Shown: positions 4,417-35,471 of the stretch, piece after piece | Numbering within the stretch: position 1 is the stretch's first letter | Layout: each line of letters begins with the position of its first letter | Assembly: GCA_030704795.1 (NCBI GenBank) | Contig: JAUYCZ010000021.1 | Coordinates: 1-37,556 of the forward strand | Direction: 5' to 3' | Length of the DNA: 37,556 nucleotides | Source of the DNA: a bacterium | Lineage (GTDB): Bacteria > Patescibacteriota > Minisyncoccia > Minisyncoccales > GWA2-46-15 | Position numbers and translations under genes: made by a program | Notes under the pieces: generated by a model | What the model saw: only the letters and a program-made list of their open reading frames with translations | What the model was told of the DNA's origin: nothing | Databases searched by the model: none

Positions 4417-6630
4417 ATGGAATTAAAATTGAGCCGTCTTTTGTACTACGGTTTTGCGGTGCTCGTTTTTCTCGTGCCGCTTTTCTGGCTGCCTTTTTCC
4501 TTTGAAGCCTGGGAATTCCAGAAGATCTTTTTAATTTTCTTTCTGGGTCTGGCCATCGTAATTATTTCAGCCATCGAGAGCCGCCGGGAAAACCCCGGAG
4601 GTTTTTCCTTCAAGATCCTCTGGCCGTTTGATTTCCTGGTCCTGATCTTCCTGGCCTTGGCTTTGGTTTCGGCTTTTTTCTCGGTCGATAGAATCGCCAG
4701 CCTCTTTGGGTTTTACGGCCGTTTCTCCGACGGCCTGGTCGGCCTCTTAAGTTTCATCCTGGTTTATCTTTTGGCCCGGCGGCAAAAGAACACAGATCAG
4801 TTGGTCAAGATTCTGCTGGCCTCAGGCCTGATTGTGGTCGGGTTGGCTTTCTTATCTTTGACCGGGATACTTGGTCGCTTGACTGGTTTCAACGCCACTT
4901 TAAAACAACTCAACTTTAATCCGGTTTCTCCGTCTTTTGAGGGCCTGACTTTGTTTTTGGTGCCCCTGGTTTTTTTGGCTTTCGGCTTCCTCAAAGAGAA
5001 AACCAAATTTATCTTTCTGGTTTTTTCTTTGGGCCTGATCTTTTTAGTTGATTACACTCCGGCCTGGGTGGTTTTGGGGCTGACCTCTCTTCTGGCTTTA
5101 ATTTTCCTTTTCTTAAAGAGCTTTAATGACAAGGAGGGGAACTTTCTCAGGAAAAACCTGGCGCTGGCCTTATTTTTAGTATTGGCGACTTTGGGCATCA
5201 GTTTTAATCTGAATCAAGTTGTGCCGCCGGCTTTGGTCGGCTTTCCCCGCGAAGTGACTCTGGATCAAACCACCAGCTGGCAGATCGCCCAGGATTCTTT
5301 AAAGATCAGACCTTTCTTGGGGTCCGGCCCCGGCACCTTTTTTTATGATTTTTCCCGCTTTCGTCTCGCCAGTTTCAACGACGATCCTTTATGGCAAGTA
5401 AGGTTTGACCGGCCCGTTAGCCATGTGGCAGAGATGGCCGCCACGATGGGAATACTTGGCTTGCTTTCATATTTATTGCTGATCGCGACAACAATAGTGT
5501 CTAATTTTCAATTTTCTCCCGCCTTAGGCGGGATTCAATCAAATCCCTACAAACGATTGTTACTATTCGCTTTTTTGGCGACGGTGATTGGTCAGTTCGT
5601 TTATTACCAGAACGCGGTTTTGGGATTTAGTTTTTGGCTGTTCTTGGGACTGATCGCCGGTCAGACAGGCCAAGCCAAAAGCTTATCTCTGCCCTGGCTT
5701 TCTCGGTTTAAATTGCCCAGCCCGGACAGTCTGAAGGGAAGAGTTATTTTAATGGGTTCTTTTTTGATTTTTAGTCTGGTTTTGTTTTCAATCGTCTTTG
5801 TCGGCTTTCGGGTTTATGTGGCCGATTTCTTTTACAGCCAGGCTTTTCAGTCGCCCCCGGGCGATGAGAAAAGCGCTCTCTTACAGAAAGCGGTGGTCGT
5901 CAATCCTTTCTTTGCCGAATACCAGATTATTCTAGGCCGCGCCTTATTGAATTCGGCTTTGACTGATGGGCAAAAGCCCGAGCGCAACCTAACCAAGATT
6001 TTTCAGGATTTGAGCGAGGCGGCGGCCGTGGCCAAGAAGGCCACCCAACTTTCGCCCCGGTGGGTGGCCGGCTGGGAAACCCTAGGCATGATTTACCAGG
6101 AAATTCAAGGCCTGGCGACGGGCGCCGAAAAAGCCAGCCAGCAGTCTTTTGAAAAAGCGATTGAATTAGAGCCGACCAATCCCTTGCTTTATTCCCGGCT
6201 GGGAAAAGCCTTTTTCGCCCAAGATAAGTTTGACGAGGCCCAGACGCAATTTGAAAAAGCCCGTCGCCTTAAATCCGACTTGCTCGAGCCGAAACTTTAT
6301 CTGGCTTTGATTAAGGAAAAGAAAGGGGATCTGCCCGGCGCCACCCGGGGGATGGCGCATCTGCAAGAGCTCTATCCTTTGAATGCCGATACCGCTTTTC
6401 AGCTCGGCCGGCTCTACTTTAACCAGAATCAGAACGACCCGGCTATCCAGCAGTTTAAAAAGGTTTTGACCCTCAATCCTTCTCATCTCGACAGCCTTTA
6501 TTCTTTGGCCCTGGCTTTTGAAAAAAAAGGCCAGAAAACCCAGGCTCTTTCCTATCTCAAACAGGCTCTTGAGATTAGTCCGGCTAACCCAACGCTGAAA
6601 GAAAAACTAAAAGAGCTACAGGAGCAGTAG
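4417..6630 (+). CDS. Paralogous O-antigen-ligase-like membrane protein with TPR repeats
   Basis: Same architecture as the upstream gene: PFLGSGPGTFFYDF, AFQLGRLYF, FEKAIELEPTNP. Confidence 0.75.
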   Translation: MELKLSRLLYYGFAVLVFLVPLFWLPFSFEAWEFQKIFLIFFLGLAIVIISAIESRRENPGGFSFKILWPFDFLVLIFLALALVSAFFSVDRIASLFGFYGRFSDGLVGLLSFILVYLLARRQKNTDQLVKILLASGLIVVGLAFLSLTGILGRLTGFNATLKQLNFNPVSPSFEGLTLFLVPLVFLAFGFLKEKTKFIFLVFSLGLIFLVDYTPAWVVLGLTSLLALIFLFLKSFNDKEGNFLRKNLALALFLVLATLGISFNLNQVVPPALVGFPREVTLDQTTSWQIAQDSLKIRPFLGSGPGTFFYDFSRFRLASFNDDPLWQVRFDRPVSHVAEMAATMGILGLLSYLLLIATTIVSNFQFSPALGGIQSNPYKRLLLFAFLATVIGQFVYYQNAVLGFSFWLFLGLIAGQTGQAKSLSLPWLSRFKLPSPDSLKGRVILMGSFLIFSLVLFSIVFVGFRVYVADFFYSQAFQSPPGDEKSALLQKAVVVNPFFAEYQIILGRALLNSALTDGQKPERNLTKIFQDLSEAAAVAKKATQLSPRWVAGWETLGMIYQEIQGLATGAEKASQQSFEKAIELEPTNPLLYSRLGKAFFAQDKFDEAQTQFEKARRLKSDLLEPKLYLALIKEKKGDLPGATRGMAHLQELYPLNADTAFQLGRLYFNQNQNDPAIQQFKKVLTLNPSHLDSLYSLALAFEKKGQKTQALSYLKQALEISPANPTLKEKLKELQEQ
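5503..5544. repeat. Palindrome nested in an AATTTTC repeat inside a CDS
   Basis: AATTTTC AATTTTC [TCCCGCCT-T-AGGCGGGA, 5517-5533] TTC AATCAAAT. Confidence 0.7.
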
Positions 6631-6651
6631 AAGTAGTTTAGATTTTTCTCT

Positions 6652-6709
6652 TTGACAAATATCATAAAAGATGTTATAGCGAGTACGATATATCGCTTCG
6701 CGCTATAAT
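6652..6709 (+). promoter_or_regulatory. Sigma70 promoter whose -10 box is interrupted by palindromic element A
   Basis: TTGACA 6652-6657, 17 bp spacer, then TATA[element]AT. Confidence 0.55.
6674..6708. repeat. Two-hairpin palindromic element, copy A
   Basis: TTATAG CG-AGTA-CG ATATAT CGC-TTC-GCG CTATAA. The first 22 nt are identical to copy D (19398-19419). Confidence 0.9.
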
Positions 6710-6750
6710 TTAGCATTGGAATGAAGACAGATCAAATCTAGGAGGACAGT

Positions 6751-7212
6751 ATGAATATCTGGTTCTTTCTCATCTTGCTTCTGCCCGTGGCAGGAGCTCT
6801 CGCTCTGCGATTCTGTTTGGAGCAAGCCATTAGGCGAGCCAGGGACACGACGCCGGACTGGGGGCAAGCACTGATCTGGGCGGGCAGCGGCTTGATGACG
6901 CTGTTCTTCCTGATTCTCGTGTCTCTTCTGGGCATGTGGTTCCTGAAGGCGGGAGTCATCGGCGCTGGACTGGCGCTGGTGGCGACAGTCTTTGGGCTAG
7001 TTTCGCCCGAACTCTGGACGGCGACGGCGGCCTGGCTGCGCGATCCCCGCCACCTGCCCTGGTTGGTCGTTCCCTTCGTTCTCGTTGGCCTGGTGATTTT
7101 CTTCCTGACCAACGGGAGCCTGGCGATCACCCTGATCTCCGAACTGCTCGTTCTGCTCGTGATCGGCTTGGGCATCGGCCTGATGTTCAGACCGTTCCGC
7201 CGGCGGAAGTAA
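6751..7212 (+). CDS. Hypothetical multi-TM membrane protein, GC-rich, probably horizontally acquired
   Basis: 153 aa, nearly all hydrophobic, with a basic tail. AGGAGG SD at about 6740. Visibly higher GC than the flanks. Confidence 0.7.
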   Translation: MNIWFFLILLLPVAGALALRFCLEQAIRRARDTTPDWGQALIWAGSGLMTLFFLILVSLLGMWFLKAGVIGAGLALVATVFGLVSPELWTATAAWLRDPRHLPWLVVPFVLVGLVIFFLTNGSLAITLISELLVLLVIGLGIGLMFRPFRRRK

Positions 7213-7230
7213 GACAGAATCGCAAAGCCA

Positions 7231-7269
7231 AAAGACGGGTTTCTACGAAGAAACCCGCCTTTGCTTTTT
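7231..7269 (+). terminator. Intrinsic terminator
   Basis: CGGGTTTCT-acga-AGAAACCCG stem followed by ccTTTGCTTTTT. Confidence 0.75.
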
Positions 7270-7289
7270 ACAAACTCTCAGGTCGGAGT

Positions 7290-7318
7290 TTGACAGAGTA
7301 TCAATAGGAAGATATTAT
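7290..7318 (+). promoter_or_regulatory. Putative sigma70 promoter for the 7368/7595 ORFs
   Basis: TTGACA 7290-7295, 17 bp spacer, TATTAT 7313-7318. Confidence 0.6.
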
Positions 7319-7320
7319 AA

Positions 7321-7368
7321 TTATAGCGAGCGGGACGCCGCTCGATATATCGAATCCTATTCGCTATA
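7321..7368. repeat. Two-hairpin palindromic element, copy B
   Basis: TTATAG CGAGCGG-GACG-CCGCTCG ATATAT CGAAT-CCT-ATTCG CTATA. The last A is the A of the ATG at 7368. Confidence 0.9.
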
Positions 7369-7586
7369 TGATCAAGGATTTAAGCGAATTAGTTGGATAC
7401 CTGGACCAGAAGTTTCAGGAAACGGCCAAAAAAGAAGATTTATTAAAACTCGCCCGGCGGGAAGAATTCGACGTTCCCAAAAGAGAGATTCGCGAAGATC
7501 TACGCGACCTAAAGGAAAAAGTTCAAGCGTTGACGGCTTCTGTTGATCGACTCGTTCAAGCCGTAAATAATATCAAAACCAGATAG
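7368..7586 (+). CDS. Small coiled-coil hypothetical protein, possibly C-terminally truncated
   Basis: 72 aa with a heptad pattern and an AKKEDL motif related to the next ORF. Confidence 0.6.
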   Translation: MIKDLSELVGYLDQKFQETAKKEDLLKLARREEFDVPKREIREDLRDLKEKVQALTASVDRLVQAVNNIKTR

Positions 7587-7594
7587 CGATAGCG

Positions 7595-7849
7595 ATGACG
7601 ATGAATCTTACTCCAGAAGACATCCAAAAATTGATTGAGGTTTTTGCGACTAAAGATGATTTGAAGGAAGCCACAAAAGATCTTGCTACTAAGAGCGATT
7701 TTAATGAATTAATGACCGCCATTGACGCTTATGCCAAGAAAGCAGATACTTATTTCCAGGAGATGGTGATGTTGTCGCGCAAAGTGGACCGTCATGAAAA
7801 ATGGCTTTTGCAACTGGCGGAAAAACTCGGCATCAAACTCGAATATTGA
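7595..7849 (+). CDS. Small coiled-coil hypothetical protein (ATKDDL/ATKSDF repeats); start may be 7601
   Basis: 84 aa: ATKDDLKE..ATKSDF...RHEKWLLQLAEKLGIKLEY. Confidence 0.7.
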   Translation: MTMNLTPEDIQKLIEVFATKDDLKEATKDLATKSDFNELMTAIDAYAKKADTYFQEMVMLSRKVDRHEKWLLQLAEKLGIKLEY

Positions 7850-7904
7850 AGGCGGCTTGACAACAATTGTCAAAACGTTTTATTATTATTCTAGACTTAC
7901 CCAC

Positions 7905-7933
7905 TAGACATTTTCTGGGTTCTTTGCTATACT
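7905..7933 (+). promoter_or_regulatory. Putative rpoBC promoter
   Basis: TAGACA 7905-7910, 17 bp spacer, TGc-TATACT 7928-7933. A second candidate is TTGACA 7857 with TATTAT 7881 (18 bp spacer). Confidence 0.55.
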
Positions 7934-8125
7934 TAGCCCATCGCCAATTTAAATAATTTTTAAGTTAACTTGAAGCCCATTAGGCTTACTTAAAGACTTA
8001 AACCATTCTAACCCCAAGCTTTTCGGGGATTTTTTAGCTTCAAGAACCTTGCTTCGCAAGAACTTAATTTCGTCAGAAAAAAACTTGTTTATTCTCGCTA
8101 ACGCTCGAATTAGCTTTGCTCGAAA

Positions 8126-11100
8126 ATGAACGTAAAATCTTTCTCTAAGGCGAAGGTTTCTTTCCACCTTCCCTACTTAGGGTCTCTCCAGAGAGACAGC
8201 TGGCAATGGCTTCTGGAAAGAGGCATTAAAGATCTATTTGCCGAGGTTTCGCCCATCCGGGATTACACCAAAAAAGAGTTTGAACTCTGGTTTTTGGATT
8301 ACAAGCTCGACACACCCAGATACAAGGATGACTTGGAGGCCAAAAATGACAACGGTTCATACGAAGCTTCCCTGAGAGCCAAGACCCGCCTGATTAATCT
8401 CAAAACCAAAGAGGTTAAAGAGCAAGAAGTCTTTCTGGCCGATTTTCCCATTATGACCGAGAGAGGCACTTTTATTGTTAACGGCGTCGAAAGAGTCGCC
8501 ATCGCCCAGTTGATCCGTTCGCCGGGCGTTTTCTTTACCAGCCAGAGAATCGGCGGGCGTCACTATTTCGGCGCCAAGGTCATTCCCAACCGGGGCGCTT
8601 GGCTGGAAATGGAAACCGATGCCACGGGCTTTATAGGCATCAAGATTGACCGCAAAAGAAGGGTGGCCGCCACCACTCTCTTGAGGGCTTTTGGCATTGA
8701 TAATGACTTAGCCATCAAAGAGCTCTTTTCGGATATCGACAATGATCCCGACCTCAAATACCTGGACGAAACCTTAAAGAAAGACCCGACGCACAATCAG
8801 GCCGAAGCCTTGGTTGAGATCTATGAGAGACTGAGGCCGGGAGACCTAGTGACGCCGGACACGGCGCGGGAATTGATCGAAAACATGTTCTTTAACTTTG
8901 AGAGATATGACCTTTCCCGTGTGGGGAGGTGGAGGATGAATCAGCGCTTTTCGCGCGAGCGCAAAACTGGCGCAGAACCAAACGCAAAACAGACGCAGAA
9001 GTTTAGCGGAGACGAGATCACCGTCAAAGAAAGAGTTCTCCGGCCCGGGGATATCGTCGCCGTCATTCATGAGATCATCCGCTTGAACAACACGCCGGGC
9101 GCCCTGCCCGATCCGATTGATCACTTGGGCAACCGCCGCGTCAGAACCTCCGCCGAAGTTCTGCAAAACCGCATGAGAGTGGGGATGCTCCGGATGGAAA
9201 GAATCATCAAGGACCGGATTTCCACCTTAGAAGAAGGCATGCTGGCCCCTTCCCAACTCATCAACCCTCGTCCCTTAATGGCCGTCATTAAAGAGTTCTT
9301 TACTTCTAGCCAGCTCTGTCAGTTCATGGATAATGAGAATCCTCTGGCCGAGCTCGAACACAAGAGACGGTTGGCGGCGACGGGCCCGGGCGGTTTAACC
9401 CGGGAAAGAGCCGGTTTGGAAGTGAGAGACGTGCAGCCTTCGCACTATGGCCGCATCTGCCCGATTCAGACCCCCGAAGGCCAGAACGTGGGCTTGATCT
9501 CTCACATGGCCTGCTTTGCCCGGATCAATTCTTTGGGCTTTCTGGAGACCCCCTACTTTAAGGTGGAGAACGGCAAAATCACCGACGAGGTTCATTATCT
9601 CAATGCTTACGAGGAAGAAAGATATAATATTGCTCACGCCGGCACTGACATTGATAAAAACGGACACATTATTCCCGCCAAGGTGGCCGCCCGCATCAAG
9701 GGCGAGCCGGGCGAGATTGAAAAAGAAAAAATTAATTTTATTGATGTTTCTTCGAAACAAGCCATTTCCGCGGCCACTTCTTTGATTCCCTTTTTGCAGA
9801 ACGATGACGCCAACCGCGCTTTAATGGGCTCAAATATGCAGCGTCAGGCCGTGCCTCTTTTGAATCCCGAGGCGCCTTTGGTTTGCACCGGGGTGGAGCC
9901 CAAGGTGGCCGAAGACTCGGGCCAGATTCTCCTGGCCCAGGACGACGGCCGGGTGACCGAAGTCGATGCCCGCGAGATCGTCATTCAAAACACCAAGACC
10001 CGAGTTCAGACCCGTTACCAACTCCGCACCTTTGTCCGAACCAACCAATACACTTGTTTTCATCAACGCCCCATTGTCAAAAAAGGGGAGCCTGTCAAAA
10101 AGGGCCAGGTTTTGACGGATGGAGCGGCCATTGAAGATGGCTGGCTGGCCCTGGGCCGGAATATTCTCGTTTCCTTTTTATCCTGGCGGGGCTCAAACTT
10201 TGAAGACGCCATCATCATTTCGGAAAAACTGGTTAAAGAATACGTTTATTCTTCGATCCATTTAGAGAACTTTTTCTGCGATGTCAGAGAAACAAAACTG
10301 GGTCCGGAACTGACCACCGGCGACATTCCCAATGTTTCGGAAGAAAAACTGAAGGACCTGGATTCCGAAGGCATTATCCGCATCGGCGCCGAAGTCGGTT
10401 CCCACGACATCCTGGTCGGGAAAATCTCGCCCAAGGGTGAGACGGACCTGACGCCGGAAGAAAGGCTCTTGAAAGCCATTTTCGGGGAAAGAGCCCGAGA
10501 GGTCAAAGACAGTTCGCTTTTGCTCGAATACGGCAAAAGAGGCCGGGTCGTCGGCGTTAAAGTCTGGGAAAGAGAAAAGGGCGCCAAGCTCGAACCCGGC
10601 ATCATTAAAAGAGTTCAGGTGGAAGTGGCCGCCCTGCGCAAGATTCAGGCCGGTGATAAATTAGCGGGGCGCCATGGCAACAAAGGCGTCGTTTCTCTGG
10701 TTTTACCCGAAGAAGAAATGCCCTTCCTGGAAGACGGCACGCCCGTGGACATTATTCTCAACCCTTTGAGCGTCGCTTCCCGCATGAACCTGGGCCAGAT
10801 TCTGGAGACGCATTTGGGTTTAGCCGCCAAGAAGCTGGGCTACCGGGCCGTTTCCCCGGCCTTGCTCGGCGCCAACGAAAAAGACATCAAAGAGGAATTG
10901 ATTAAGGCCGGCTATCCCGCCGACGGCAAATTGCAGGTCTTTGACGGCCGGACCGGCGAACCCTTCCCGGGAAAGATCACCGTCGGCTATATCTATATGA
11001 TGCAGCTGATCCACATGGTCGAAGACAAACTGCACATGAGATCGATCGGCCCTTATTCCCTGATCACCCAACAGCCCTTGGGCGGTAAATCCCAATTCGG

Positions 11101-11362
11101 CGGCCAGCGATTCGGCGAGATGGAAGTCTGGGCCTTGGAAGGCTACGGCGCCAGCCACATCCTGCAAGAGATGTTGACCATTAAATCCGATGACGTGCCC
11201 GGGAGAGCCGCCAGTTATGAGGCGATCCTCAAAGGCGAACCCATTCGTCAGCCCAGCGTTCCGGCTTCCTTCAGTCTTTTGGTGGCCGAATTAAAATCAC
11301 TGGGATTGGCGGTGGAGGTGAAGGAGAAAATGAGGGAAGAGAGGGAAGAAGATAAAAGATAA
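8126..11362 (+). CDS. rpoB: DNA-directed RNA polymerase beta subunit
   Basis: GTFIVNGVERV, QFMD..NPLAELEHKRR, GDKLAGRHGNKG, GGQRFGEME motifs. Confidence 0.99.
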   Translation: MNVKSFSKAKVSFHLPYLGSLQRDSWQWLLERGIKDLFAEVSPIRDYTKKEFELWFLDYKLDTPRYKDDLEAKNDNGSYEASLRAKTRLINLKTKEVKEQEVFLADFPIMTERGTFIVNGVERVAIAQLIRSPGVFFTSQRIGGRHYFGAKVIPNRGAWLEMETDATGFIGIKIDRKRRVAATTLLRAFGIDNDLAIKELFSDIDNDPDLKYLDETLKKDPTHNQAEALVEIYERLRPGDLVTPDTARELIENMFFNFERYDLSRVGRWRMNQRFSRERKTGAEPNAKQTQKFSGDEITVKERVLRPGDIVAVIHEIIRLNNTPGALPDPIDHLGNRRVRTSAEVLQNRMRVGMLRMERIIKDRISTLEEGMLAPSQLINPRPLMAVIKEFFTSSQLCQFMDNENPLAELEHKRRLAATGPGGLTRERAGLEVRDVQPSHYGRICPIQTPEGQNVGLISHMACFARINSLGFLETPYFKVENGKITDEVHYLNAYEEERYNIAHAGTDIDKNGHIIPAKVAARIKGEPGEIEKEKINFIDVSSKQAISAATSLIPFLQNDDANRALMGSNMQRQAVPLLNPEAPLVCTGVEPKVAEDSGQILLAQDDGRVTEVDAREIVIQNTKTRVQTRYQLRTFVRTNQYTCFHQRPIVKKGEPVKKGQVLTDGAAIEDGWLALGRNILVSFLSWRGSNFEDAIIISEKLVKEYVYSSIHLENFFCDVRETKLGPELTTGDIPNVSEEKLKDLDSEGIIRIGAEVGSHDILVGKISPKGETDLTPEERLLKAIFGERAREVKDSSLLLEYGKRGRVVGVKVWEREKGAKLEPGIIKRVQVEVAALRKIQAGDKLAGRHGNKGVVSLVLPEEEMPFLEDGTPVDIILNPLSVASRMNLGQILETHLGLAAKKLGYRAVSPALLGANEKDIKEELIKAGYPADGKLQVFDGRTGEPFPGKITVGYIYMMQLIHMVEDKLHMRSIGPYSLITQQPLGGKSQFGGQRFGEMEVWALEGYGASHILQEMLTIKSDDVPGRAASYEAILKGEPIRQPSVPASFSLLVAELKSLGLAVEVKEKMREEREEDKR

Positions 11363-11372
11363 TTTATAAATT

Positions 11373-14300
11373 ATGAGAGTTGCCGACCTAGAAGCCATCC
11401 GCATCAAGCTCGCCAGCCCCGAGGAGATTTTGCAATGGTCCCACGGCGAAGTGACCAAGCCCGAGACGATCAACTACCGCACGCAAAAGCCCGAAAAAGA
11501 AGGCCTGTTTGACGAAAAGATTTTTGGCCCGGAAAAAGATTACGAGTGCTATTGCGGCAAATATCGCGGCATCCGCCACAAGGGCATTGTCTGCGACAAG
11601 TGCGGGGTGGAAGTGACCAAGGCTCAGGTGCGGCGGGAAAGAATGGGGCACATCAAGCTGGCTTCGCCGGTTTCCCATATCTGGTTCCTGAGAGGCGTGC
11701 CGTCCCGCATGGGCCAGGTTTTGGATTTGCCCATGGCTCACCTGGAGAAAGTCATCTATTTTAATGCCTACATTGTGACCAAGGTGGAGGAAGCGGCCAA
11801 GCAGCAGATTTTAGAACAGATTGAAAAAGAATACAAAGTAAAATCCAAGGCTCAAAACGCCCAATCTCAAAACGTCAAGAAGCCCACCAAGGGAGAAAAA
11901 AAAGACCAGCAGGATTTAAAGGCGGCCCGAGACCGGGCCAAAGACGAACTTTTAAGCATCAAACCTTTAAAAATTCTTTCGGAAGTCGATTATTTTGACC
12001 TATCTATTAAGTACGGCCAGTCTTTTGAGGCCGGCACCGGGGCAGAAACTCTGAGAAAGATCTTCAGCGAAATTGATACCAAGAAAAAGATTGCCGGACT
12101 CAAGGAAGAACTGGAAAAAGCCTCTCCCTTAAACCGGAGAAAGATTTTGAGACGGCTCAAGCTTTTTCAGGGCCTGGAAAGGGCCAATATTAAGGCCGAG
12201 TGGATGTTTCTGACCATCCTGCCCATTCTGCCGCCGGATCTTAGGCCGATGGTTCAACTGGACGGCGGCCGCTATGCCTCCTCTGATTTGAACGATCTTT
12301 ATCGCCGGGTCATTAACCGCAATAATCGCTTAAAGTATTTGTTGGAGATTGCCGCGCCCGAAGTCATCGTGCGTAATGAAAAGAGAATGCTGCAGGAAGC
12401 CGTTGACGCCCTGATTGACAACGGCATGAGAAAGGGCACCATGACTCAGGCCACCACCGGCGGCCGCCGCCTTTTGAAGTCTCTGGCCGATATTCTAAAA
12501 GGGAAACAAGGCCGGTTTAGGCAGAATCTTTTAGGCAAGAGAGTAGACTATTCGGGGCGATCCGTCATCGTCGTGGGCCCGGATTTGCCGCTGAACCAAG
12601 TGGGCATTCCCAAGAAAATGGCCCTGGAACTCTTTAAACCCTTTGTCATTAAAAAAATTCTGGACAAGGAACTGGCCTACAACGTGCGGGGCGCTTCTCG
12701 TTTGATTGAGCAGGAAACCGATGACGTCTGGGCCATTCTCGAAGAAGTGGTGACGGACAAACTAGTCCTCTTGAACCGGGCCCCGACCTTGCACCGGCTG
12801 GGCATTCAGGCTTTCCAGCCCATCCTGATTGAGGGCGAAGCGATCCGGGTTCATCCCTTGGTTTGCAAAGCTTTTAACGCGGATTTTGACGGAGACCAGA
12901 TGGCCGTTCATTTGCCTTTGTCCAAAGAAGCTCAGGCCGAAGCCCGGGAGATCATGCTTTCTTCGTTGAATCTCTTGAAGCCGGCCACGGGCTTGCCCAT
13001 TGTCAGTCCTTCCCAGGATATTGTTTTGGGCTGTTATTGGCTGACCAAGATAAGGCCTGGCGCCAAGGGCGAGGGCAAGATTTTCGGTTCGGCCCAGGAA
13101 GCTTGCCTGGCCTATGAATTTAAGGAAGTCGATATGAAAGCCTTGATCAAGATGCCTCATCCGAAGTCTAAGGACCGGCTGGAATTCATAGAAACGTCGG
13201 TGGGCCGCTTGACCTTTAACGAGGCTTTGCCCGAAGATTTTCCTTTCCAGAATAAGGAGATGAATTCCCGGGAGCTAGAAGAACTCATCCGCGAGGTCAT
13301 CGAGAGATACGGCATTGAAAAAACCCCGCCCATTCTGGATAAAATTAAGAGTACGGGCTTTGAAGGCGCCACCTGGTCCGGCGTGACCTGGGGCATGGAT
13401 GATCTGATCGTGCCGGCCGAAAAACCCAAACTGATTGCGGCCGCCGAGCAAGAGATCGCTCAGCTGGAAATCCATTTTCAAAAAGGACTTTTGTCCCGCG
13501 ATGAAAAATATCAGAGATCAATTGAAGTTTGGCAGCGAACCAAGTCGGCGGTGGAAAAATTAGTGCCGAAATCTCTGCCGGCGGATGGAAGCGTCTTTAC
13601 CATCATTGATTCGGGGGCCCGGGGTTCCTGGGCTCAGCCGGCGCAGATGGCGGGCATGAAGGGCTTGGTCATCAACCCAATCGGCCGGATTATTGAACTG
13701 CCGATCAAGCATTCTTACAAAGAAGGCTTTGACGTTTTGGAATACTTTCTTTCGACTCACGGCGCCCGCAAGGGTACGGCCGACACGGCGTTGCGGACAT
13801 CCACGGCCGGCTACCTGACGAGAAGGCTCGTCGACGTCAGCCATGACATCATCATCCACGAAATTGATTGCGGCGATGCCGTGGGCACGGTCTTTTCACG
13901 CCCGGAAGCCCAAGAGATCGGCCAGAACTTCCTTTTTAAAATTGTGAGCCGTATTTCTCTGGATAGTATTAAATCAAGCAATCCGGAAAGCAAAAATAAA
14001 ACCCTGGTTAAGGCGGGCGAGGTGATTGATTGGGAAAAGGGCAAAGAAATCATCAAAGAAGGCATTGACGAAGTGCGGGCCCGTTCGCCTTTGAGCTGCC
14101 GGCTTTTAAGAGGCGTCTGTCAGAAATGCTACGGCTGGAGCCTGGGATCGGGCCAGATGGTTAAGACGGGAGAAGCGGTGGGCGTCATTGCCGCTCAGGC
14201 CATTGGTGAGCCGGGGACTCAGTTAACGATGAGAACTTTCCATTTGGGCGGCGTGGCCGGCGGCAGTGATATTACCATGGGCTTGCCGCGGGTGGAAGAA

Positions 14301-15026
14301 ATATTTGAGGCCCGGGTGCCTCTAGGCCAGGGCGCGATCACCCTGGTTGATGGCCAGGTTCTGGAAATTATTGGCGGAAAGACGGTCCGGATAAAGCCAT
14401 CCGAGCCAGCCAGCTCAGCCCTTGGTTTAGCCACTGGCTCAGCCAGGAAGAAAAAGAGCTCGAAGCTGGAGAAAGACGAGATTTTGGAATACGAAATCCC
14501 CGAAGGCAAGGGCATTTTAGTTAAGGCGGGGGATCGGGTCAAAGCGGGGCAAGCCCTGTCCGAGGGCAACCTGGATTTAAAGGAGCTTTTCAAGGCGGTG
14601 GGCCAAGAACGAACCCAGCATCATATTATTAAAGAGATTCAGCGGATTTATGCTTCTCAGGGGGCGACCATTCATGACAAGCACGTGGAGGTGGTCGTCC
14701 GGCAAATGTTTTCCCGATTGAAGGTCAAGGATCCGGGTGACAGCATTTTGATTCAGGGAGAAACCATCACCAACCAGAAATTATTTGAAGAAAACCAGCG
14801 GCTGAAGAAAGAAGGGAAAAAGACCGTGTCGGCCACCTCGATTTTATTGGGCATCTCCAAGGTGGCTTTAACGACGGACAGTTTTTTGTCGGCCGCCTCT
14901 TTCCAGGAGACTTCCCGGATTCTTATCTCCGCCGCCATCTCGGGCAAGGAAGACAAACTCCAGGGCTTAAAAGAAAATGTCATCATCGGCAAGTTGATTC
15001 CGGCCGGCACAGGCCTGAAGAAATGA
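11373..15026 (+). CDS. rpoC: DNA-directed RNA polymerase beta' subunit
   Basis: Catalytic NADFDGD motif, zinc finger [49 protein letters not shown]. Confidence 0.99.
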
Positions 15027-15062
15027 TTCACTCGGCGGCCAAAAAATGTTAGAATTTACTCA

Positions 15063-17306
15063 GTGAGTAAAAACAACAAGAATCACAATTCAAAGAACTC
15101 TCTTTCGAAGAAAGACAAGGAACCAAAGTCCTTGTTCCTTCCGGCTTTAGCCCAGGGCTATCTCTTGGGCTTAGTTTTTCTCTTAGCGGCGGCCATTCTC
15201 ACTCTTTCATTTTTCGATTTGGCCGGCGGGGGAGGAGAAAAAATTCTCAGTTCCCTCACTTTTTTGTTCGGCCAGGAGACGATCCGGTTGCTGCCTTTGT
15301 TTTTGATTTTGGTCGGCGTCTTCTTTTTTGTCGTCAGCCCGAATTCTCAGAAAATCTGGAAAATGATTATTCTGGCGCTTTTTTCCTGTTTAATCGGCCT
15401 GAGCGCGGTTTTGACTTCTTTAAACGGTTATGACAAATTCTCTTTGAGCGATCCGGGGCCCGGTGGTTTTCTGGGACGCCTTTTGAGCTGGCCCATTCTC
15501 AAGATATTTGATTTCTGGGTCAGTCTGGCGGTTTTCGGGGGCTTGATCATCTTTGGCTTTTTTATCTTTTGGCAGGTGAGCCGGAAGATTCGGCCCAAAG
15601 AGGTTGAGGATCTGGCGGAAAAGCCCCAGGCGCTCCAGAGGAGCATCCGGAGGATTTTTGAACCCCAGCTCAAAATTAAAGAAATCTCGGACAATAAATC
15701 CCGTTCCCTGACGGGAGCGACGCCTTTACCCGAACTCAAAACCAAACCCATTCCCCAAGGGATGAGATCATCAATCTACAAAAAACCACCTTTGGATTTA
15801 CTGGAAGTTGATCGGGGCGAACCCGTCACCGGTGATATCCGCAACAACCTGACCATTATTAAAAAAACCTTAGAGACCTTTGGCATTCCCGTGGAAATGG
15901 GCGAAGTTAACGTTGGTCCGACCGTCACCCGATACACCTTAAAGCCGGCCGAAGGCATCAAACTTTCTAAAATCACCACTCTTAATAATGATCTTTCCCT
16001 GGCCTTGGCGACTCATCCCATCCGCATCGAAGCGCCGATTCCGGGCCAGTCCTTGGTGGGGATTGAGGTTCCCAACAAGGTCCGAACCCAGGTCAGATTG
16101 CGTAATCTTTTTGAATCGCCGGAATTCCAAAATTCCAGTTCATCTTTGGTTTTTGCTTTGGGCCGGGATGTCGCCGGCAACCCTCTTTTTGCCGACCTGA
16201 CCCGCATGCCGCATTTGCTGGTAGCCGGATCGACCGGCACGGGCAAAACCATCTGTTTAAACAGCCTTATTTTAAGCTTGATTTATCGCAATTCACCCGA
16301 GGTGATGAGGTTGATCCTGGTTGACCCCAAGCGGGTGGAGTTCCCGGTTTATCAAGACATCCCCCATCTTTTGTCCCCCGTTATCTTTGACGGCCAGAAA
16401 ACAATTAATACCCTAAAATGGCTGGTTAAGGAAATGGAGAGACGTTTCGAAGTTCTGGCTCAGGCTAAAGCCCGGGACATCGGCGGGTACAATCGCGAGA
16501 TCAATTCCCGTCGCGCCAAGACCTCGGTCAAAAATGAGGAAGAGGATTTGGACCCCATGCCCTACATTGTCGTCGTCATTGACGAGCTGGCCGATTTGAT
16601 GGCCGCCCGCGGCAAAGAGATTGAAGGCGGCATTGTGAGGCTGGCCCAGATGGCCCGCGCCGTGGGCATTCATCTGGTCGTGGCCACGCAAAGACCGTCC
16701 GTGGAAGTCATTACCGGTTTAATCAAGGCCAACATTACTTCCCGGATTACTTTCCAGGTGGCTTCACAGGTTGATTCCCGGACTGTCATTGACATGGCCG
16801 GAGCGGAAAAGCTCCTGGGCTCCGGCGACCTGCTCTTTATCTCTGCAGAAACGGCTAAGCCCCGCCGGATTCAGGGCGGTTATGTCACGGATAAAGAAGT
16901 CAAAAGAGTCACCGAGTTTTTGAAAACTCAAAAACATGACTTTGCCGCTTTGAAAGAAAACTTTTTGGCCGAGGAATTGGAAAGAGAACTGGCCGTCGGG
17001 GAACCCGACAGGGGCGAGTTTTATGCCGGCGAGGAAGACCCTCTCTATCCCCAGGCCAAGCAATTGGCGATTGAATCCAAAAAAGCTTCGGCTTCCCTGA
17101 TGCAGCGCCGGTTAAGAGTGGGCTATGCTCGGGCGGCCCGGCTCTTGGATATTCTGGAAGAAAGAGGCGTGGTCGGACCGGCCGACGGCGCCAAACCCCG
17201 GGAGGTTTATCTGACCGGCGAAGTCAAAGAAGAAGAAAGGGGTGTTCCCATTAAGATTCAGAGGCCGGGGGGAGAAAAACAGGATGACGAATGGGAGAAG
17301 GTATAG
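15063..17306 (+). CDS. ftsK: FtsK/SpoIIIE DNA translocase
   Basis: N-terminal TMs, [30 protein letters not shown], gamma domain [18 protein letters not shown]. Confidence 0.97.
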
Positions 17307-17326
17307 ACAATTTTCAATCAATTACA

Positions 17327-18334
17327 ATGGTTAAGAAAAACCCAGAAAAAAAAGAAACAGGCGTCCGCAAGGATTTGCTGGAAGCGGTGGCCGAGATCAG
17401 ACAGAGATTTGGCGAGGGCGCCATTATGAAATTAAAAGACGTGAGGGCGGTCGATGTTGACGTTATCCCCACCGGCTCGCCTTCTTTGGATTTGGCTCTG
17501 GGCGTGGGCGGCGTTCCCCGCGGCCGGGTCGTGGAAATATTCGGCCCCGAATCGAGCGGAAAAACAACCTTGGCGCTGCACATCTGCGCCGAAGCCCAGA
17601 AGACGGGCGGGGTGGCCGCTTTTATTGATGTCGAGCACGCTTTGGATCCGGACTACGCCAGAAAAATCGGGGTGGCGGTGGAAGATATTCTCATTTCTCA
17701 GCCCGATTCCGCGGAAGAGGCCTTACAGATCGTGGAAACCTTGGTTCGATCGAACCAGGTTGATGTCGTTGTCGTCGATTCCGTGGCCGCCTTGGCGCCC
17801 AAGAATGCCATTGAATCAGAGATGGGGGAGTTTCAGATCGGTCTTCAGGCCCGGCTCATGTCCTCGGCTTTGCAAAAGCTTTCGGGCGCCATCTCTAAGA
17901 GCAAGGCAACCGTCATTTTTCTTAATCAAATCCGCATGAAGATTGGCATCATGTTTGGTAATCCGGAAACTACTTCCGGCGGTCTAGCTCTTAAGTTTTA
18001 TTCTTCGGTGCGGATTGATTTAAGGCGGATTGCCCAGATCAAGCACGGGGAAAGCATCATTGGTTCCCGGGTCCGGGCCAAAATCGTCAAGAACAAAGTG
18101 GCCGCTCCCTTCCGCCTCGCCGAATTCGACATCTATTATAACGAAGGCATTTCCTATCTCACCGATCTTTTGGCTTTGGGGATAAAGCAGGAAGTGATTA
18201 AGAAATCCGGCAGCTGGCTGGACTTTGGAGAAACGAGATTGGGCCAGGGAATCGAAGCGGCCAAACAGTTCTTAAAGGAAAATCCCAAGATCGCCGAAAA
18301 AATCAGGCAAGCTGTTTTCGCTTCGCAAAAATGA
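17327..18334 (+). CDS. recA: Recombinase RecA
   Basis: [54 protein letters not shown]. Probable start is the ATG at 17327. Confidence 0.98.
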
Positions 18335-18411
18335 AGATTTTGCTTCGCAAAAATAAAAAAGACAGTTTTTGCTGCCCCCGGTACTTAAAATTCAAAGTTG
18401 TATTTTGAGTC

Positions 18412-18609
18412 TTACCTCATGACGTAAGGCAGCAAGGCTAAGAAGCGGGCTCTTTTGATGGCCTGGGCTAATTTCCGCTGGTGGCTGGCGCAAACGCCGG
18501 TTCTTTTTTTGGCCCGGATCTTGGCCAAACCCGAAGTAAACTTCCGGAGAAGCTCTAAATTTTTGTAATCGATTTCTTCAATGCCCTTTTGGCAAAAAAA
18601 ACAATCCAT
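18412..18609 (-). CDS. rpsR: 30S ribosomal protein S18 (zinc-binding C+ form)
   Basis: CFFC..IDYKN..LL..F...KI...RTGVC..HQR.LA.AIKRARFLALLPY. Confidence 0.97.
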   Translation of the reverse strand: MDCFFCQKGIEEIDYKNLELLRKFTSGLAKIRAKKRTGVCASHQRKLAQAIKRARFLALLPYVMR

Positions 18610-18615
18610 GAGTCT

Positions 18616-19293
18616 TTAGATTAAATAAGCTAAATTATCATGCTTTTTCATATTTTTAATTTTTTCCAACGGTTGAAGATTCTTTAAACCCCAACACTCT
18701 TTGAATGCCGAATCGCTCGGCGAAATATAATTAAATGAGGATTTTGGTTTTATATGATCAACCACCCAGTAGCTACCATAGTTATCCCAATTCATTTTAG
18801 CGTCAAATCTCTTCTCTAGATATCGTATTAATTCTGTTAAGGTATAATTGACTAAAGTTTTCCACGTTTGCCCAGCCTTTTTATCCTTTAGACAACGAGA
18901 GATAGCCGAGCCCATATTTTCGTCAAGACGATATTTTGGATTTGTTTTTCTCTGGTATTTCCCCCACGCCCCCTTATACCGCAGTAGTTTCTTTTTATTT
19001 TCTCGATTATATTTTCTGTGACATCGTTGCAATCGGATCTTGTTGCGCTGATAATACTTTTTACATTGTTGCAGTATTCTATTTTTGTTTATCCGATACC
19101 ATTTCTTATGATATTGGGATACGCGCTCCTTATTGTTTTTATAATATTCTTTGTGTTGTAATCGTACCCTCTTCCGGTTTTTCTGGTACCATTTTTTGCC
19201 GTATAAAGACGTTCTTTTTAATATCCTCTCCTTATTTTTCTGATAATAAGCCTTTTTGTTTTGCCGCTCTTTTTCTTTATTCCTATAGGCCAT
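18616..19293 (-). CDS. Free-standing HNH (HNN-type beta-beta-alpha-metal) endonuclease with N-terminal basic 15-aa repeats
   Basis: C-terminal YLEKRF...MNWDNYG.YWVVDHIKP...CW.LKNLQPL...N motif, six Y/W-Y-x-x-N-K repeats, and strongly AT-rich relative to the flanks. Confidence 0.8.
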   Translation of the reverse strand: MAYRNKEKERQNKKAYYQKNKERILKRTSLYGKKWYQKNRKRVRLQHKEYYKNNKERVSQYHKKWYRINKNRILQQCKKYYQRNKIRLQRCHRKYNRENKKKLLRYKGAWGKYQRKTNPKYRLDENMGSAISRCLKDKKAGQTWKTLVNYTLTELIRYLEKRFDAKMNWDNYGSYWVVDHIKPKSSFNYISPSDSAFKECWGLKNLQPLEKIKNMKKHDNLAYLI

Positions 19294-19332
19294 AATCTGG
19301 TATATTTATTTCATCCAGGCATTCTTTGTTCG

Positions 19333-19373
19333 ATAGCGATCACGATATATCGGGCGGAGTACCGCCCGCTATA
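19333..19373. repeat. Two-hairpin palindromic element, copy C (inverted relative to B)
   Basis: ATAG CG-ATCA-CG ATATAT CGGGCGG-AGTA-CCGCCCG CTATA. Confidence 0.9.
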
Positions 19374-19397
19374 AACAGAAAAACGCTGTGGCCAATA

Positions 19398-19434
19398 TTA
19401 TAGCGAGTACGATATATCGAGCTCTGCTCGCTAT
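19398..19434. repeat. Two-hairpin palindromic element, copy D
   Basis: TTATAG CG-AGTA-CG ATATAT CGAGC-TCT-GCTCG CTAT. Confidence 0.9.
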
Positions 19435-19455
19435 TAATTAAGACCCTTTAAAGTA

Positions 19456-20320
<865 letters not shown>

Positions 20321-20328
20321 ATATTTGT

Positions 20329-20357
20329 ATCTTACCAGAAAAAGATTTGTTTGACAA
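20329..20357 (-). promoter_or_regulatory. Putative rpsF promoter, near-leaderless
   Basis: Minus strand: TTGTCA (20357-20352), 17 bp spacer, TGg-TAAGAT (20334-20329), then ATG 8 nt later. Confidence 0.6.
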
Positions 20358-20385
20358 GGAGATCAAATCCCCAAAATCTGTTAAA

Positions 20386-20495
20386 CCCCGTAGGAATCTC
20401 GAGTAAACCAATCGATTCTCAACGACCAAGAGGCGGAGCCGCCTATCGGCTTAGGCCAATTGTTGACGAAAGTTTGACCAAAGATTCCTACGGGG
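20386..20495. mobile_element. MITE-like element 1 (110 bp)
   Basis: TIRs CCCCGTAGGAATCT / AGATTCCTACGGGG, flanked by direct TAAA (20382-20385 and 20496-20499). No ORF. Confidence 0.8.
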
Positions 20496-20507
20496 TAAAA
20501 TAGAGAT

Positions 20508-24609: not shown

Positions 24610-24693
24610 TGCCGGGAGCGGGAGTCGAACCCGCATGGAGTTGCCTCCACAGCGTTCTGAACGCTGCGCGTAAACCAGTTCCGCCACCCCGGC
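24610..24693 (-). tRNA. tRNA-Leu(CAG)
   Basis: Reverse complement folds as acceptor GCCGGGG/TCCCGGC, anticodon arm CAGCG-TTCAGAA-CGCTG, long variable arm TGGAG-GCAA-CTCCA and T arm GCGGG-TTCGACT-CCCGC. CCA is not encoded. Confidence 0.95.
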
Positions 24694-24702
24694 TTTTTGT
24701 TT

Positions 24703-24740
24703 TTTTGTAAAGTATTTTGTAAAGTATCTGATACTTTACA
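24703..24740. repeat. Direct repeat plus perfect 11-1-11 palindrome upstream of tRNA-Leu
   Basis: TTTTGTAAAGTA twice (24703-24726); TGTAAAGTATC-T-GATACTTTACA (24718-24740). Confidence 0.8.
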
Positions 24741-35416: not shown

Positions 35417-35471
35417 TTAGCCTCGCTAGGGCGAGGTAAGCAAATCTTAGCCCCGCTACTAGCGGGGTAAG
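35417..35471. repeat. Tandem pair of related hairpins upstream of lemA
   Basis: TTAG CCTCGC-TAGG-GCGAGG TAAG and TTAG CCCCGCTA-C-TAGCGGGG TAAG. Confidence 0.8.

Follow-up and report, generated by a model that had tools for sequence, protein, structure and literature searches.

A likely family of very small, REP-like palindromic insertion elements in Paceibacteria-type bacteria of the candidate phyla radiation

The 37,556-bp contig C15 of a 636,697-bp, 30-contig patescibacterial genome (G000) was analysed over its whole length, referred to here as the window, and carries four copies of a short, structured palindromic repeat that we call the ATAG element. In our view these copies likely represent a previously undescribed family of palindromic non-coding insertion elements of very small size, similar to REP (repetitive extragenic palindromic) sequences and REPINs (REP doublets forming hairpins), in Paceibacteria-type bacteria of the candidate phyla radiation (CPR). 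Each element would be an inverted pair of hairpin units held in the fixed scaffold AT/AGCG-arm1-CGATATATCG-arm2-CGCT/AT (slashes mark the element borders), acting at the DNA level rather than as an RNA gene. A survey of the full-text literature on palindromic and miniature repeats in CPR bacteria or Patescibacteria returned no description of such repeats, as judged by titles and abstracts.

The family scaffold can be written (T)ATAGCG-arm1-CGATATATCG-arm2-CGCTAT(A), with an element size of about 27-44 bp plus AT; the two-hairpin repeat as a whole measures 31-46 bases. The pattern ATAGCG-N(2-25)-CGATATATCG-N(2-25)-CGCTAT has four exact matches in the window (copies A to D, Table 1), and none of 100 dinucleotide-preserving shuffles of the window yielded any match; the 10-mer core CGATATATCG occurs four times where 0.48 occurrences are expected. 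An initial annotation, made from the window alone, had described a fixed scaffold in these four copies, had listed their arms, and had pointed out a compensatory change (GAG/CTC to GGG/CCC) between arm 1 of copy B and arm 2 of copy C, all of which proved correct. It had also placed copies just 5' of a membrane gene, a small coiled-coil open reading frame (ORF) and an HNH gene, and this is accurate for the window: copy A ends 44 nt before the membrane-gene ORF at 6751, copy B runs directly up to the ATG (7368) of a coiled-coil ORF of 72 aa, and copy C lies 39 nt upstream of the minus-strand HNH-like ORF at 18616-19293. Copy D begins 21 nt past the ssb stop codon.

Table 1. Coordinates of the ATAG element copies and associated features in the window
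Feature	Position	Strand	Description
Copy A	6678..6706	.	29-nt insertion relative to the sister genome G007; exact pattern match 6676-6706; AGCG-AGTA-CGATATATCG-CTTCG-CGCT plus second AT; full scaffold with flanks 6675-6709
Copy B	7323..7367	.	exact match; two long arms, AGCGGGACGCCGCT and AATCCTATT
Copy C	19333..19372	.	exact match; arms ATCA and GGCGGAGTACCGCC
Copy D	19400..19434	.	exact match; arms AGTA and AGCTCTGCT
Promoter split by copy A	6652..6709	+	TTGACA 6652-6657, 17-nt spacer, TAT 6675-6677, copy A, AAT 6707-6709
Inserted cassette	18610..19455	-	846 bp between ssb (19456-19908) and rpsR (18412-18609), absent from G007; contains the HNH-like ORF 18616-19293, copies C and D, and a small hairpin 19444-19465; context, outside the repeat family

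Mobility is indicated by orthologous loci that are filled in one genome and empty, to the base, in another. The sister genome G007 (median amino-acid identity to G000, 88.7%) is syntenic with the window. Both flanks are present in G007 for eight of the 21 full copies of G000 (one mismatch per block allowed); three of these loci are cleanly empty in G007 (C2:7361, C15:6676 and C17:37109), two are filled in both genomes, one holds a different partial copy and two cannot be aligned. In the reciprocal comparison, G000 has both flanks of 13 of the 19 G007 copies; there, six loci are cleanly empty (C5:8252, C21:721, C24:10142, C26:15010, C27:33985 and C28:7854), the tandem pair C27:10673/10709 forms one further empty locus, two are filled in both, and three are complex. 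The copy upstream of rplJ is absent from two other relatives, G005 and G001 (median identities 78.4% and 66.7%). The tiny mobile element proposed in the initial annotation, together with the comparison of orthologous loci as a way to look for it, thus led to base-precise empty and filled sites.

These sites also define the target. At every clean locus the dinucleotide AT closes the flank that borders the element, and one AT, or a diverged GT, stands in the empty allele. Of 206 AGCG ends, 151 have AT beside them; beyond that, the flanks show no conserved position. The AT is single at empty sites and stands on both sides when a site is filled, which fits either no duplication or a 2-bp duplication. 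The inserted unit is either AGCG...CGCT with AT duplicated, or TAGCG...CGCTA entering between A and T without duplication. Because AT is the target, the start codon is fused to the element end (CGCT-ATG) at several copies.

Copies are also found inside genes. At four loci in G007 they lie in frame within long ORFs whose G000 orthologues lack them; the hosts are genes for a DHH-family protein, a penicillin-binding protein (PBP) transpeptidase and MnmA, each with a net insertion of 36 nt (12 codons), and for GlmS, which has two tandem copies. A metagenome contig (L308) carries a tandem pair within an ORF read as GreA-like from the printed sequence alone, with no family search, and a degenerate G000 copy (C17:17071) lies in frame within a 398-aa ORF, with no clean empty site confirming it. 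Elsewhere in G000, one frame without stop codons (C9:7729-9867) links a glycosidase-like gene, by way of copy C9:8765, with the glutamate dehydrogenase gene. The element enters any AT-containing, mostly intergenic, site, and intragenic copies survive only if their net length is a multiple of three.

Copy A provides an example of an insertion within a promoter. The orthologous G007 site is an uninterrupted TTGACA-17-TATAAT with a perfect -10 box, a consensus promoter scan of the window found no intact promoter at copy A, and excision of the copy in silico restores TTGACA/17/TATAAT. A strong promoter-like site scoring 11/12, TTGACA-17-TATTAT (7290-7318), precedes copy B, which begins 3 nt further on and probably lies at the 5' end of a transcript, in a segment that could not be aligned with G007. 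In addition, a sub-family of copies ends in TGCTATAAT, which may be an extended -10 box. Such effects on the host, including the splitting of a -10 box by copy A and the position of copy B at a transcript 5' end, would be incidental.

The placement of copies near genes raises the alternative of cis-regulation, in which the element would stand ahead of a regulon as a structured 5'-leader RNA or as an operator to which a regulatory protein binds. Most G000 copies are indeed within 0-60 nt of a start codon, copy B follows closely on its promoter-like site, the arms covary (see below), and the two 10-bp palindromes of the scaffold could bind a dimeric protein. Crude ORF calls, however, cover 91% of G000, so that tolerated insertions would land near gene starts in any case. 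Sixteen of the 21 copies sit in gaps between these calls, and among the five that overlap them at least three (C9:8765, C17:10147 and C23:7940) reflect an over-extended N-terminus. Orthologous genes in the sister genome lack the element base-precisely, and other copies are in frame within coding regions. Both orientations occur (long arm first relative to the downstream gene in seven copies, short arm first in four), and the spacing of the scaffold blocks varies by more than 10 nt. The genes directly downstream share no common theme and include dnaA/rpmH, rplJ, tgt, mfd, the HNH-like gene and genes for a GH1 glycosidase, glutamate dehydrogenase, a GGDEF protein, an ABC-F ATPase, an AhpC-type protein, a copper-type (copA-type) P-ATPase, a PBP1A-type protein, DJ-1, a DksA-type zinc finger and an ATP-cone protein. 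With no Rfam match for the element even at E<=1, we regard a regulatory element as quite improbable.

The same list of genes revises another statement of the initial annotation, namely that copies occur only upstream of accessory genes; across the genome they precede dnaA/rpmH, rplJ, tgt, the PBP1A-type gene and mfd, among others, and such genes are not accessory. Nor are copies commoner where gene content varies, as had been suggested for checking: G007 conserves both flanks of 8 of 21 copies compared with 149 of 378 random intergenic midpoints.

The family extends well beyond the window. G000 contains 18 exact cores, or 29 with at most one mismatch, about 25 of which stand in a recognisable scaffold. 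The exact pattern was found in six of 41 related genomes (10 matches in G000, 20 in G005, 12 in G007, 8 in G002, 1 in G004 and 2 in G033), and a reversed-pattern control gave none in all 41. With a relaxed pattern, whole genomes yielded 19 copies in G007, 54-59 in the 477 kb of G005 and 3-4 in the 849 kb of G001, which stands further off within the genus. The distribution across 151 genomes of the order is patchy: cores number 18 in G000, 14 in G092 and 5 in G003, with a background of 0-2 elsewhere. G092 belongs to another family, and its copies have the identical scaffold with other arms, some being 35-39 nt long; a genome of the same genus, G015, holds no core, and no counterpart of one G092 locus could be located there for an empty-site test.

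A scan of one genome per species returned 53 stretches, in which every multi-copy record is titled as a CPR lineage (Wildermuthbacteria, Nealsonbacteria, Patescibacteria group, Paceibacteria, 'Saccharibacteria' and others). Most single matches in other phyla have 'arms' that do not pair and look like chance occurrences, the clearest exception being L139, with 4-pair stems on both sides. Metagenome contigs contributed at least 120 stretches with the element, and the viral contigs scanned gave no match.

Within the scaffold the arms vary freely as long as they fold. The canonical copy has one minimal arm (AGTA, ATTA, TACT, CTTCG and the like) and one arm that forms a hairpin of 9-14 nt, of types such as GGCGG-NGTN-CCGCC, AGCGG...CCGCT, GGC-N4-6-GCC, AGC-TCT-GCT and AAT-CCT-ATT; five G000 copies have two long arms. 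The half unit (ATAGCG-arm-CGATAT) measures 16-28 nt. In 42 distinct long arms from G000, G007, G005 and G001, 141 of 163 possible consecutive pairs are formed, compared with a mean of 26.8 +/- 6.2 and a maximum of 49 in 1000 shuffles. Covariation was analysed in 34 copies with an exact scaffold, aligned with MAFFT (33 distinct rows). Here, 99% of cells pair, and three arm-2 pairs have changed on both sides (11 cells), mainly from G-C to A-T at the arm base. None of 500 shuffles reached the observed both-sides cell count or covariation score, and 7 of 500 reached three such pairs. Since the rows were chosen for an exact scaffold, no variation was possible in the scaffold pairs, which are therefore uninformative on covariation. 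The conservation of structure over sequence noted in the initial annotation is accordingly seen in the arms, which fold while their sequences are free.

The three-way-junction fold suggested there is not supported: the outer ATAG/CTAT stem is uncompensated in 5 of 21 G000 copies, which have one-ended ATAACG or CGTTAT variants (as do many copies in G005), and the single-strand folds predicted for different copies disagree (z-scores -1.6 to -3.7). No Rfam family matches the element; such a match had been named in the initial annotation as a possible refutation. At the gathering threshold, Rfam matched only two tRNAs in the whole window, and at E<=1 it matched nothing in 6640-7400 and one chance-level miRNA (E 0.82) in 19290-19480.

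Arms also turn over at fixed sites. The two loci that are occupied in G000 and G007 alike have flanks of 88-90% identity but different arms; both arms differ at one site (AGCGGGACACCGCT/AATCTTATT versus GGCAGTAGCC/CTTTG), and a single arm differs at the other (AGTA versus CGAAG). Within one genome, moreover, the same long arm is found paired with different partner arms. This pattern points to repeat insertion at the same AT, half-exchange between copies, or rapid change within the hairpin.

Some copies are arranged in tandem arrays (G007:C6:2614-2720, G005:C14:5547-5624 and G033:C72:1216-1303) with periods of 35-43 nt; the units run head-to-tail with one AT common to neighbours (...CGCTATAGCG...), and the pair at G007:C27:10673 and 10709 consists of identical duplicates. 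Degenerate extra units also abut full copies, giving 1.5-unit arrays at G000:C30:44139-44190 and C27:6116-6160, with the sub-family signature CGATATGCG-TAMT-CGCCAT. A composite relative keeps the left half ATAGCG-AGTA-CGATAT and continues with ATAAGC-NNN-GCTTAG-CCTCG... and a further hairpin (G007:C5:3709, C20:5109, C3:7933 and C21:2360; G005 L247:3989 and L236:5296). This composite could represent a sister family or else a parent form of greater length. The sequence (A)AGGAACTTAGTTCC(T), a third short palindrome, occurs at G000:C2:7420-7445, C20:3050-3100, C29:31559 and C30:61505-61530, and adjoins two copies of the ATAG element (C2:7361 and C30:61530).

Arrays of this kind recall the tandem guide-RNA arrays of TIGR-Tas systems, which have been reported in Parcubacteria and carry conserved UG...CCA boxes in their repeats (PMC12045711). 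Such an array has two alternating conserved repeats and two variable segments with a period of about 36 nt, and in the ATAG arrays an 'edge' CGCTATAGCG and a 'loop' CGATATATCG likewise alternate with variable segments. The variable parts of the element, however, are self-complementary hairpins rather than spacers, most copies are single and dispersed, and some lie inside genes. The scaffold also lacks the UG...CCA boxes described in PMC12045711, and no protein with the Nop/Tas domain (PF01798) was found in five element-rich genomes, in a search that matched the archaeal controls. A guide-RNA origin can be treated as effectively refuted.

A further alternative, raised in the initial annotation, is that the copies are attC-like or other recombination sites that capture and shuffle gene cassettes. 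An integron attC site is recognised as a folded single strand by its shape while its sequence varies, and recognition of the ATAG element by structure over sequence is similarly plausible. Pairs of copies 0.6-3.2 kb apart bracket one to three genes (C15 6676/7323, C9 5608/8765, C29 21327/23210 and C30 61530/62231), arms appear to have been swapped between copies, and one 1.5-unit array is centred on the junction palindrome (C30:44139-44175). The bracketed membrane gene that follows copy A, however, is conserved in G007 without that copy, copy-flanked genes exist in the sister genome free of copies, and the comparison with random intergenic midpoints given above shows no enrichment in variable regions. 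Single copies inside ORFs are not cassette borders, cassette arrays are absent, and an integrase of integron type was not found, G000 having a single Phage_integrase match. The attC boxes have the consensus RYYYAAC/GTTRRRY, and the scaffold is without them, as judged by reading the copies with no pattern search.

The cassette between ssb and rpsR, which contains copies C and D, bears on the same question. In G007 ssb and rpsR are 2 nt apart, and Pfam identifies SSB, S18 and S6 at the locus. The HNH-like ORF has a PHROGs HNH match (E 7.6e-6); its gene is free-standing, and the N-terminal part of the protein has repeats of a Y-x-x-N-K-E/R motif. Its closest homologues, with 68% (G014) and 60% (G028) identity, belong to two other families and to genomes with no core. 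In G014 the order is a recA-sized ORF, an S18-sized ORF, the HNH homologue, an SSB-sized ORF and an S6-sized ORF, as judged by ORF sizes and order only, which suggests that the homologue may occupy the same site and that homing into the rpsF-ssb-rpsR operon may be site-specific. The DNA upstream of the HNH gene gave no useful alignment between families. A homologue in apparently the same site of a core-free genome argues that the HNH gene is a separate homing-type insertion, with copies C and D as passengers or later arrivals. The HNH-like gene was also rejected as a mobiliser of the element, since it has no homologue in the other seven genomes of the genus and its G014 and G028 homologues are in core-free genomes. 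On this evidence a gene-capture site is very unlikely.

We return, then, to the reading of the copies as small insertion elements, for which the closest described kind is the REP/BIME/REPIN group (BIME, bacterial interspersed mosaic element; PMC3733652 and PMC3116915). REPs are hairpins of 20-40 bp with a short terminal tag, found mostly as inverted, tags-outside (HH) dimers and also as heterodimers, clusters and arrays; their copy number varies widely among related genomes, occasional in-frame intragenic copies occur, and a CGTC super-family has no known transposase (PMC3733652). Tagged hairpins, inverted doublets, heterodimers, arrays and in-frame copies are common to both, and every full ATAG element corresponds to a tags-outside doublet. 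The statement of the initial annotation that the element is not REP-like was therefore too strong: the plan is that of an HH REP dimer, and what stands is the difference in tag, ATAG instead of GTAG. The element also differs in its fixed 6-nt ATATAT spacer (within a 10-bp palindrome), in arms as short as 4-5 nt, in its CPR host and in its location, mostly upstream of genes, whereas REPs are predominantly downstream of coding regions according to the abstract of PMC3733652.

Other small elements share single features with it. The Rickettsia palindromic elements are about 100-150 bp long, unrelated in sequence and from a different phylum. They are nevertheless selfish palindromic repeats that occur in a reduced genome and persist in frame within conserved protein genes, as mentioned in PMC3733652. 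In-frame survival is thus common to both, the ATAG element being several times shorter. Elements of the IS200/IS605 type, for their part, have a hairpin near each end and insert after a short fixed sequence, with no duplication needed. The ATAG element likewise has hairpins near its ends and follows AT, and its far end, ..CTAT, carries the same letters, with recognition by structure again plausible; on the other hand its ends are symmetric like terminal inverted repeats, and no TnpA or TnpB of IS200 type was found in the element-rich genomes. Finally, the Correia/NEMIS elements are non-coding MITEs (transposable elements of miniature size with inverted repeats) of about 100-155 bp with 26-bp inverted repeats, termini TATAG.../...CTATA and a two-base AT-rich target, TA, that is duplicated, and they create or disrupt promoters. 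The inverted TATAG/CTATA termini and the disruption of promoters are shared, while the ATAG element is 3-5 times smaller and has a two-hairpin body. Like a MITE it has inverted termini, AGCG/CGCT with TAT/ATA, and its AT may be duplicated; the 173 sequences inspected contained no autonomous relative, parent insertion sequence or recurrent neighbour gene. A search for an autonomous version, with half-units bracketing a gene, gave only full copies mutated at one end and the second, composite family described above.

Several observations weigh against this reading, most of them concerning the enzyme that would move the element. G000 has a single Y1 HUH gene (C17:34704-35417), which scores 29.2 bits with PF01797, above the family cut-off, and 59.7 bits with the NCBIfam model of REP-associated tyrosine transposases (RAYTs), below the cut-off of 80. 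It is bordered on each side by a different, perfect hairpin, GTAAAGTATC-W-GATACTTTAC (C17:34640-34680 and 35420-35460), a REPtron-like arrangement. Unlike RAYT-mobilised REPINs, units of the ATAG element accompany none of the nine RAYT-like genes that were read with their flanks (one in G000, four in G007, two in G002, one in G092 and one in G015), and the enrichment beside RAYT/HUH transposases that the initial annotation had suggested looking for was not seen in this set. Seven of the nine have their own near-identical perfect hairpin on both sides, one G007 gene has an imperfect repeated motif, and one G002 gene has unrelated hairpins. These private hairpins are 21-31 nt long and differ in sequence from gene to gene (G007:C19:1534-1998, C21:10586-11269 and C19:21286-21750; L183 in G002:C70; L182 in G015:C3; L180 in G092:C45). 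Counts of RAYT-like genes, furthermore, do not track copy number: protein searches gave seven in G004, which has one copy, five in G001, four in G007, three in G006, two in G002 and one in G003, and Pfam searches two in G092 and one in G015. G005, with its 54-59 copies and 87% completeness, has no Y1 match by protein or Pfam search.

Searches for other enzymes were no more productive. TnpB (PF07282), like the Nop/Tas domain, was not found in the five element-rich genomes. The recombinases of G000 amount to one large serine recombinase at a contig end and the one tyrosine-recombinase (Phage_integrase) match (C4, a 343-aa open frame), and clustering of the genes neighbouring the 173 sequences revealed no family that recurs beside copies. 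A phyletic filter for G000 proteins present in G007 and G005 with no match in G001 retained 22 proteins, with no evident recombinase or nuclease besides one small GIY-YIG protein; because G001 is more distant, this filter recovers mostly clade-specific genes. The GIY-YIG candidate (C6:1725-1982) was rejected, as its family is multi-copy in 25 of 41 genomes without relation to copy number, though two paralogues adjoin copies. Those two (G000:C30:30209-30481 and G003:C9:4412-4633) lie directly beside copies, in a family with six matches in G000 that is common across the order. No mobilising enzyme was thus found genome-wide, in agreement with the initial annotation, which had seen no cognate enzyme in the window.

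The remaining points concern the insertions themselves. Insertion and precise deletion are indistinguishable at a single locus without an outgroup. The assembled contigs of public runs contain no excision product or polymorphic allele; for four runs, no joint removing a copy was seen over 6000-20500, a 151-nt contig from a second study spans copy A intact, and unitigs of the run that is the probable source stop inside copies B and C. These contig data carry no weight for or against excision or expression. The ATAG/ATAA tag differs from the REP tags GTAG (GT[AG]G) and CGTC; ends in ATAG, or often ATAA, keep three of the four GTAG letters, and 'ATAG' does not occur in the main text of PMC3733652. 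The enrichment for -10 boxes is also weak: a promoter spans the restored junction at 10 of 78 copies and at 251 of 4160 control intergenic AT sites (6%). Targeting of -10 boxes was therefore rejected as a general rule, copy A being an instance only. On the question of direction, however, insertion is indicated by the splitting of a TATAAT box and by the extra 12 codons in conserved genes.

The lack of an enzyme could also mean that the element is not actively mobile, and that palindromes are spread by slippage, template switching and gene conversion during host replication and repair, with no dedicated enzyme. Template switching within hairpins is an established mechanism for quasi-palindromes, and if it occurred within these hairpins it could renew the complementarity of the arms. 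The identical tandem duplicates in G007 fit such an origin, as does the outcome of the enzyme searches. It leaves unexplained, however, how the same 20 scaffold bases came to stand at dozens of unrelated AT sites, why the scaffold is identical across families, and why copy numbers run from 0-2 to 59 per genome. We consider an origin by host repair unlikely.

If the copies are mobile insertion elements, as we favour, they would most plausibly move as folded single-stranded DNA handled in trans by an enzyme, as modelled for REP/REPIN and IS200/IS605-type elements. For propagation, the scaffold sequence and arms that can each fold back on themselves would suffice, and this would account for a scaffold that is identical across families while the arms drift, swap and compensate. 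A more specific proposal, and as such a rather doubtful one, is that a kind of enzyme so far not connected with transposition moves a folded single-stranded 'dumbbell' with two interchangeable palindromic joining sites, CGAT/AT/ATCG in the middle and CGCT/AT/AGCG at the junction of the ends. If the DNA were opened and rejoined at either one, this would explain the arrays that share an AT, the 1.5-unit array centred on the junction palindrome, the exchange of single arms, and the fixed scaffold with free arms. It would be bolder still to suppose that copies inside a -10 box, such as copy A, behave as supercoiling-dependent promoter switches, with hairpin extrusion reuniting TAT and AAT.

Other features of the window were also noted. 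Two small coiled-coil ORFs (7368-7586 and 7595-7849) follow copy B. Homologues of the pair, with 70-77% DNA identity, are present at other loci in G005, G002, G006 and G007, and G001 has none; the two ORFs resemble a small pair of genes that wanders. The second palindrome, GTAAAGTATC-W-GATACTTTAC, is unrelated to the ATAG element and has four copies in G000, one of which is found at window position 24721, close to a tRNA (24610-24693). The hairpin at 19444-19465, beside copy D, has as its loop a 12-nt piece of this palindrome, TAAAGTATCAGA.

CPR bacteria, or Patescibacteria, have genomes that are among the smallest and most streamlined, and they are usually described as repeat-poor. In G005 a probably selfish element of 30-45 bp is nonetheless present about every 9 kb, and in G007 it is tolerated in genes for the cell wall and for tRNA modification. 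Among small palindromic selfish repeats, of which it would be an undescribed variant, the element stands out by its size, its fixed scaffold with free arms, and its spread in streamlined CPR genomes. There are practical consequences as well, in that the repeats break assemblies (as in the unitigs that end in copies B and C) and that the element can be mistaken for a regulatory RNA, a guide-RNA array or an attC site. The element is near the smallest size reported for mobile DNA, and it offers a clean natural case in which the sequence of a scaffold is fixed and the arms need only fold. With no linked transposase, it points to a mobilising activity yet to be recognised.

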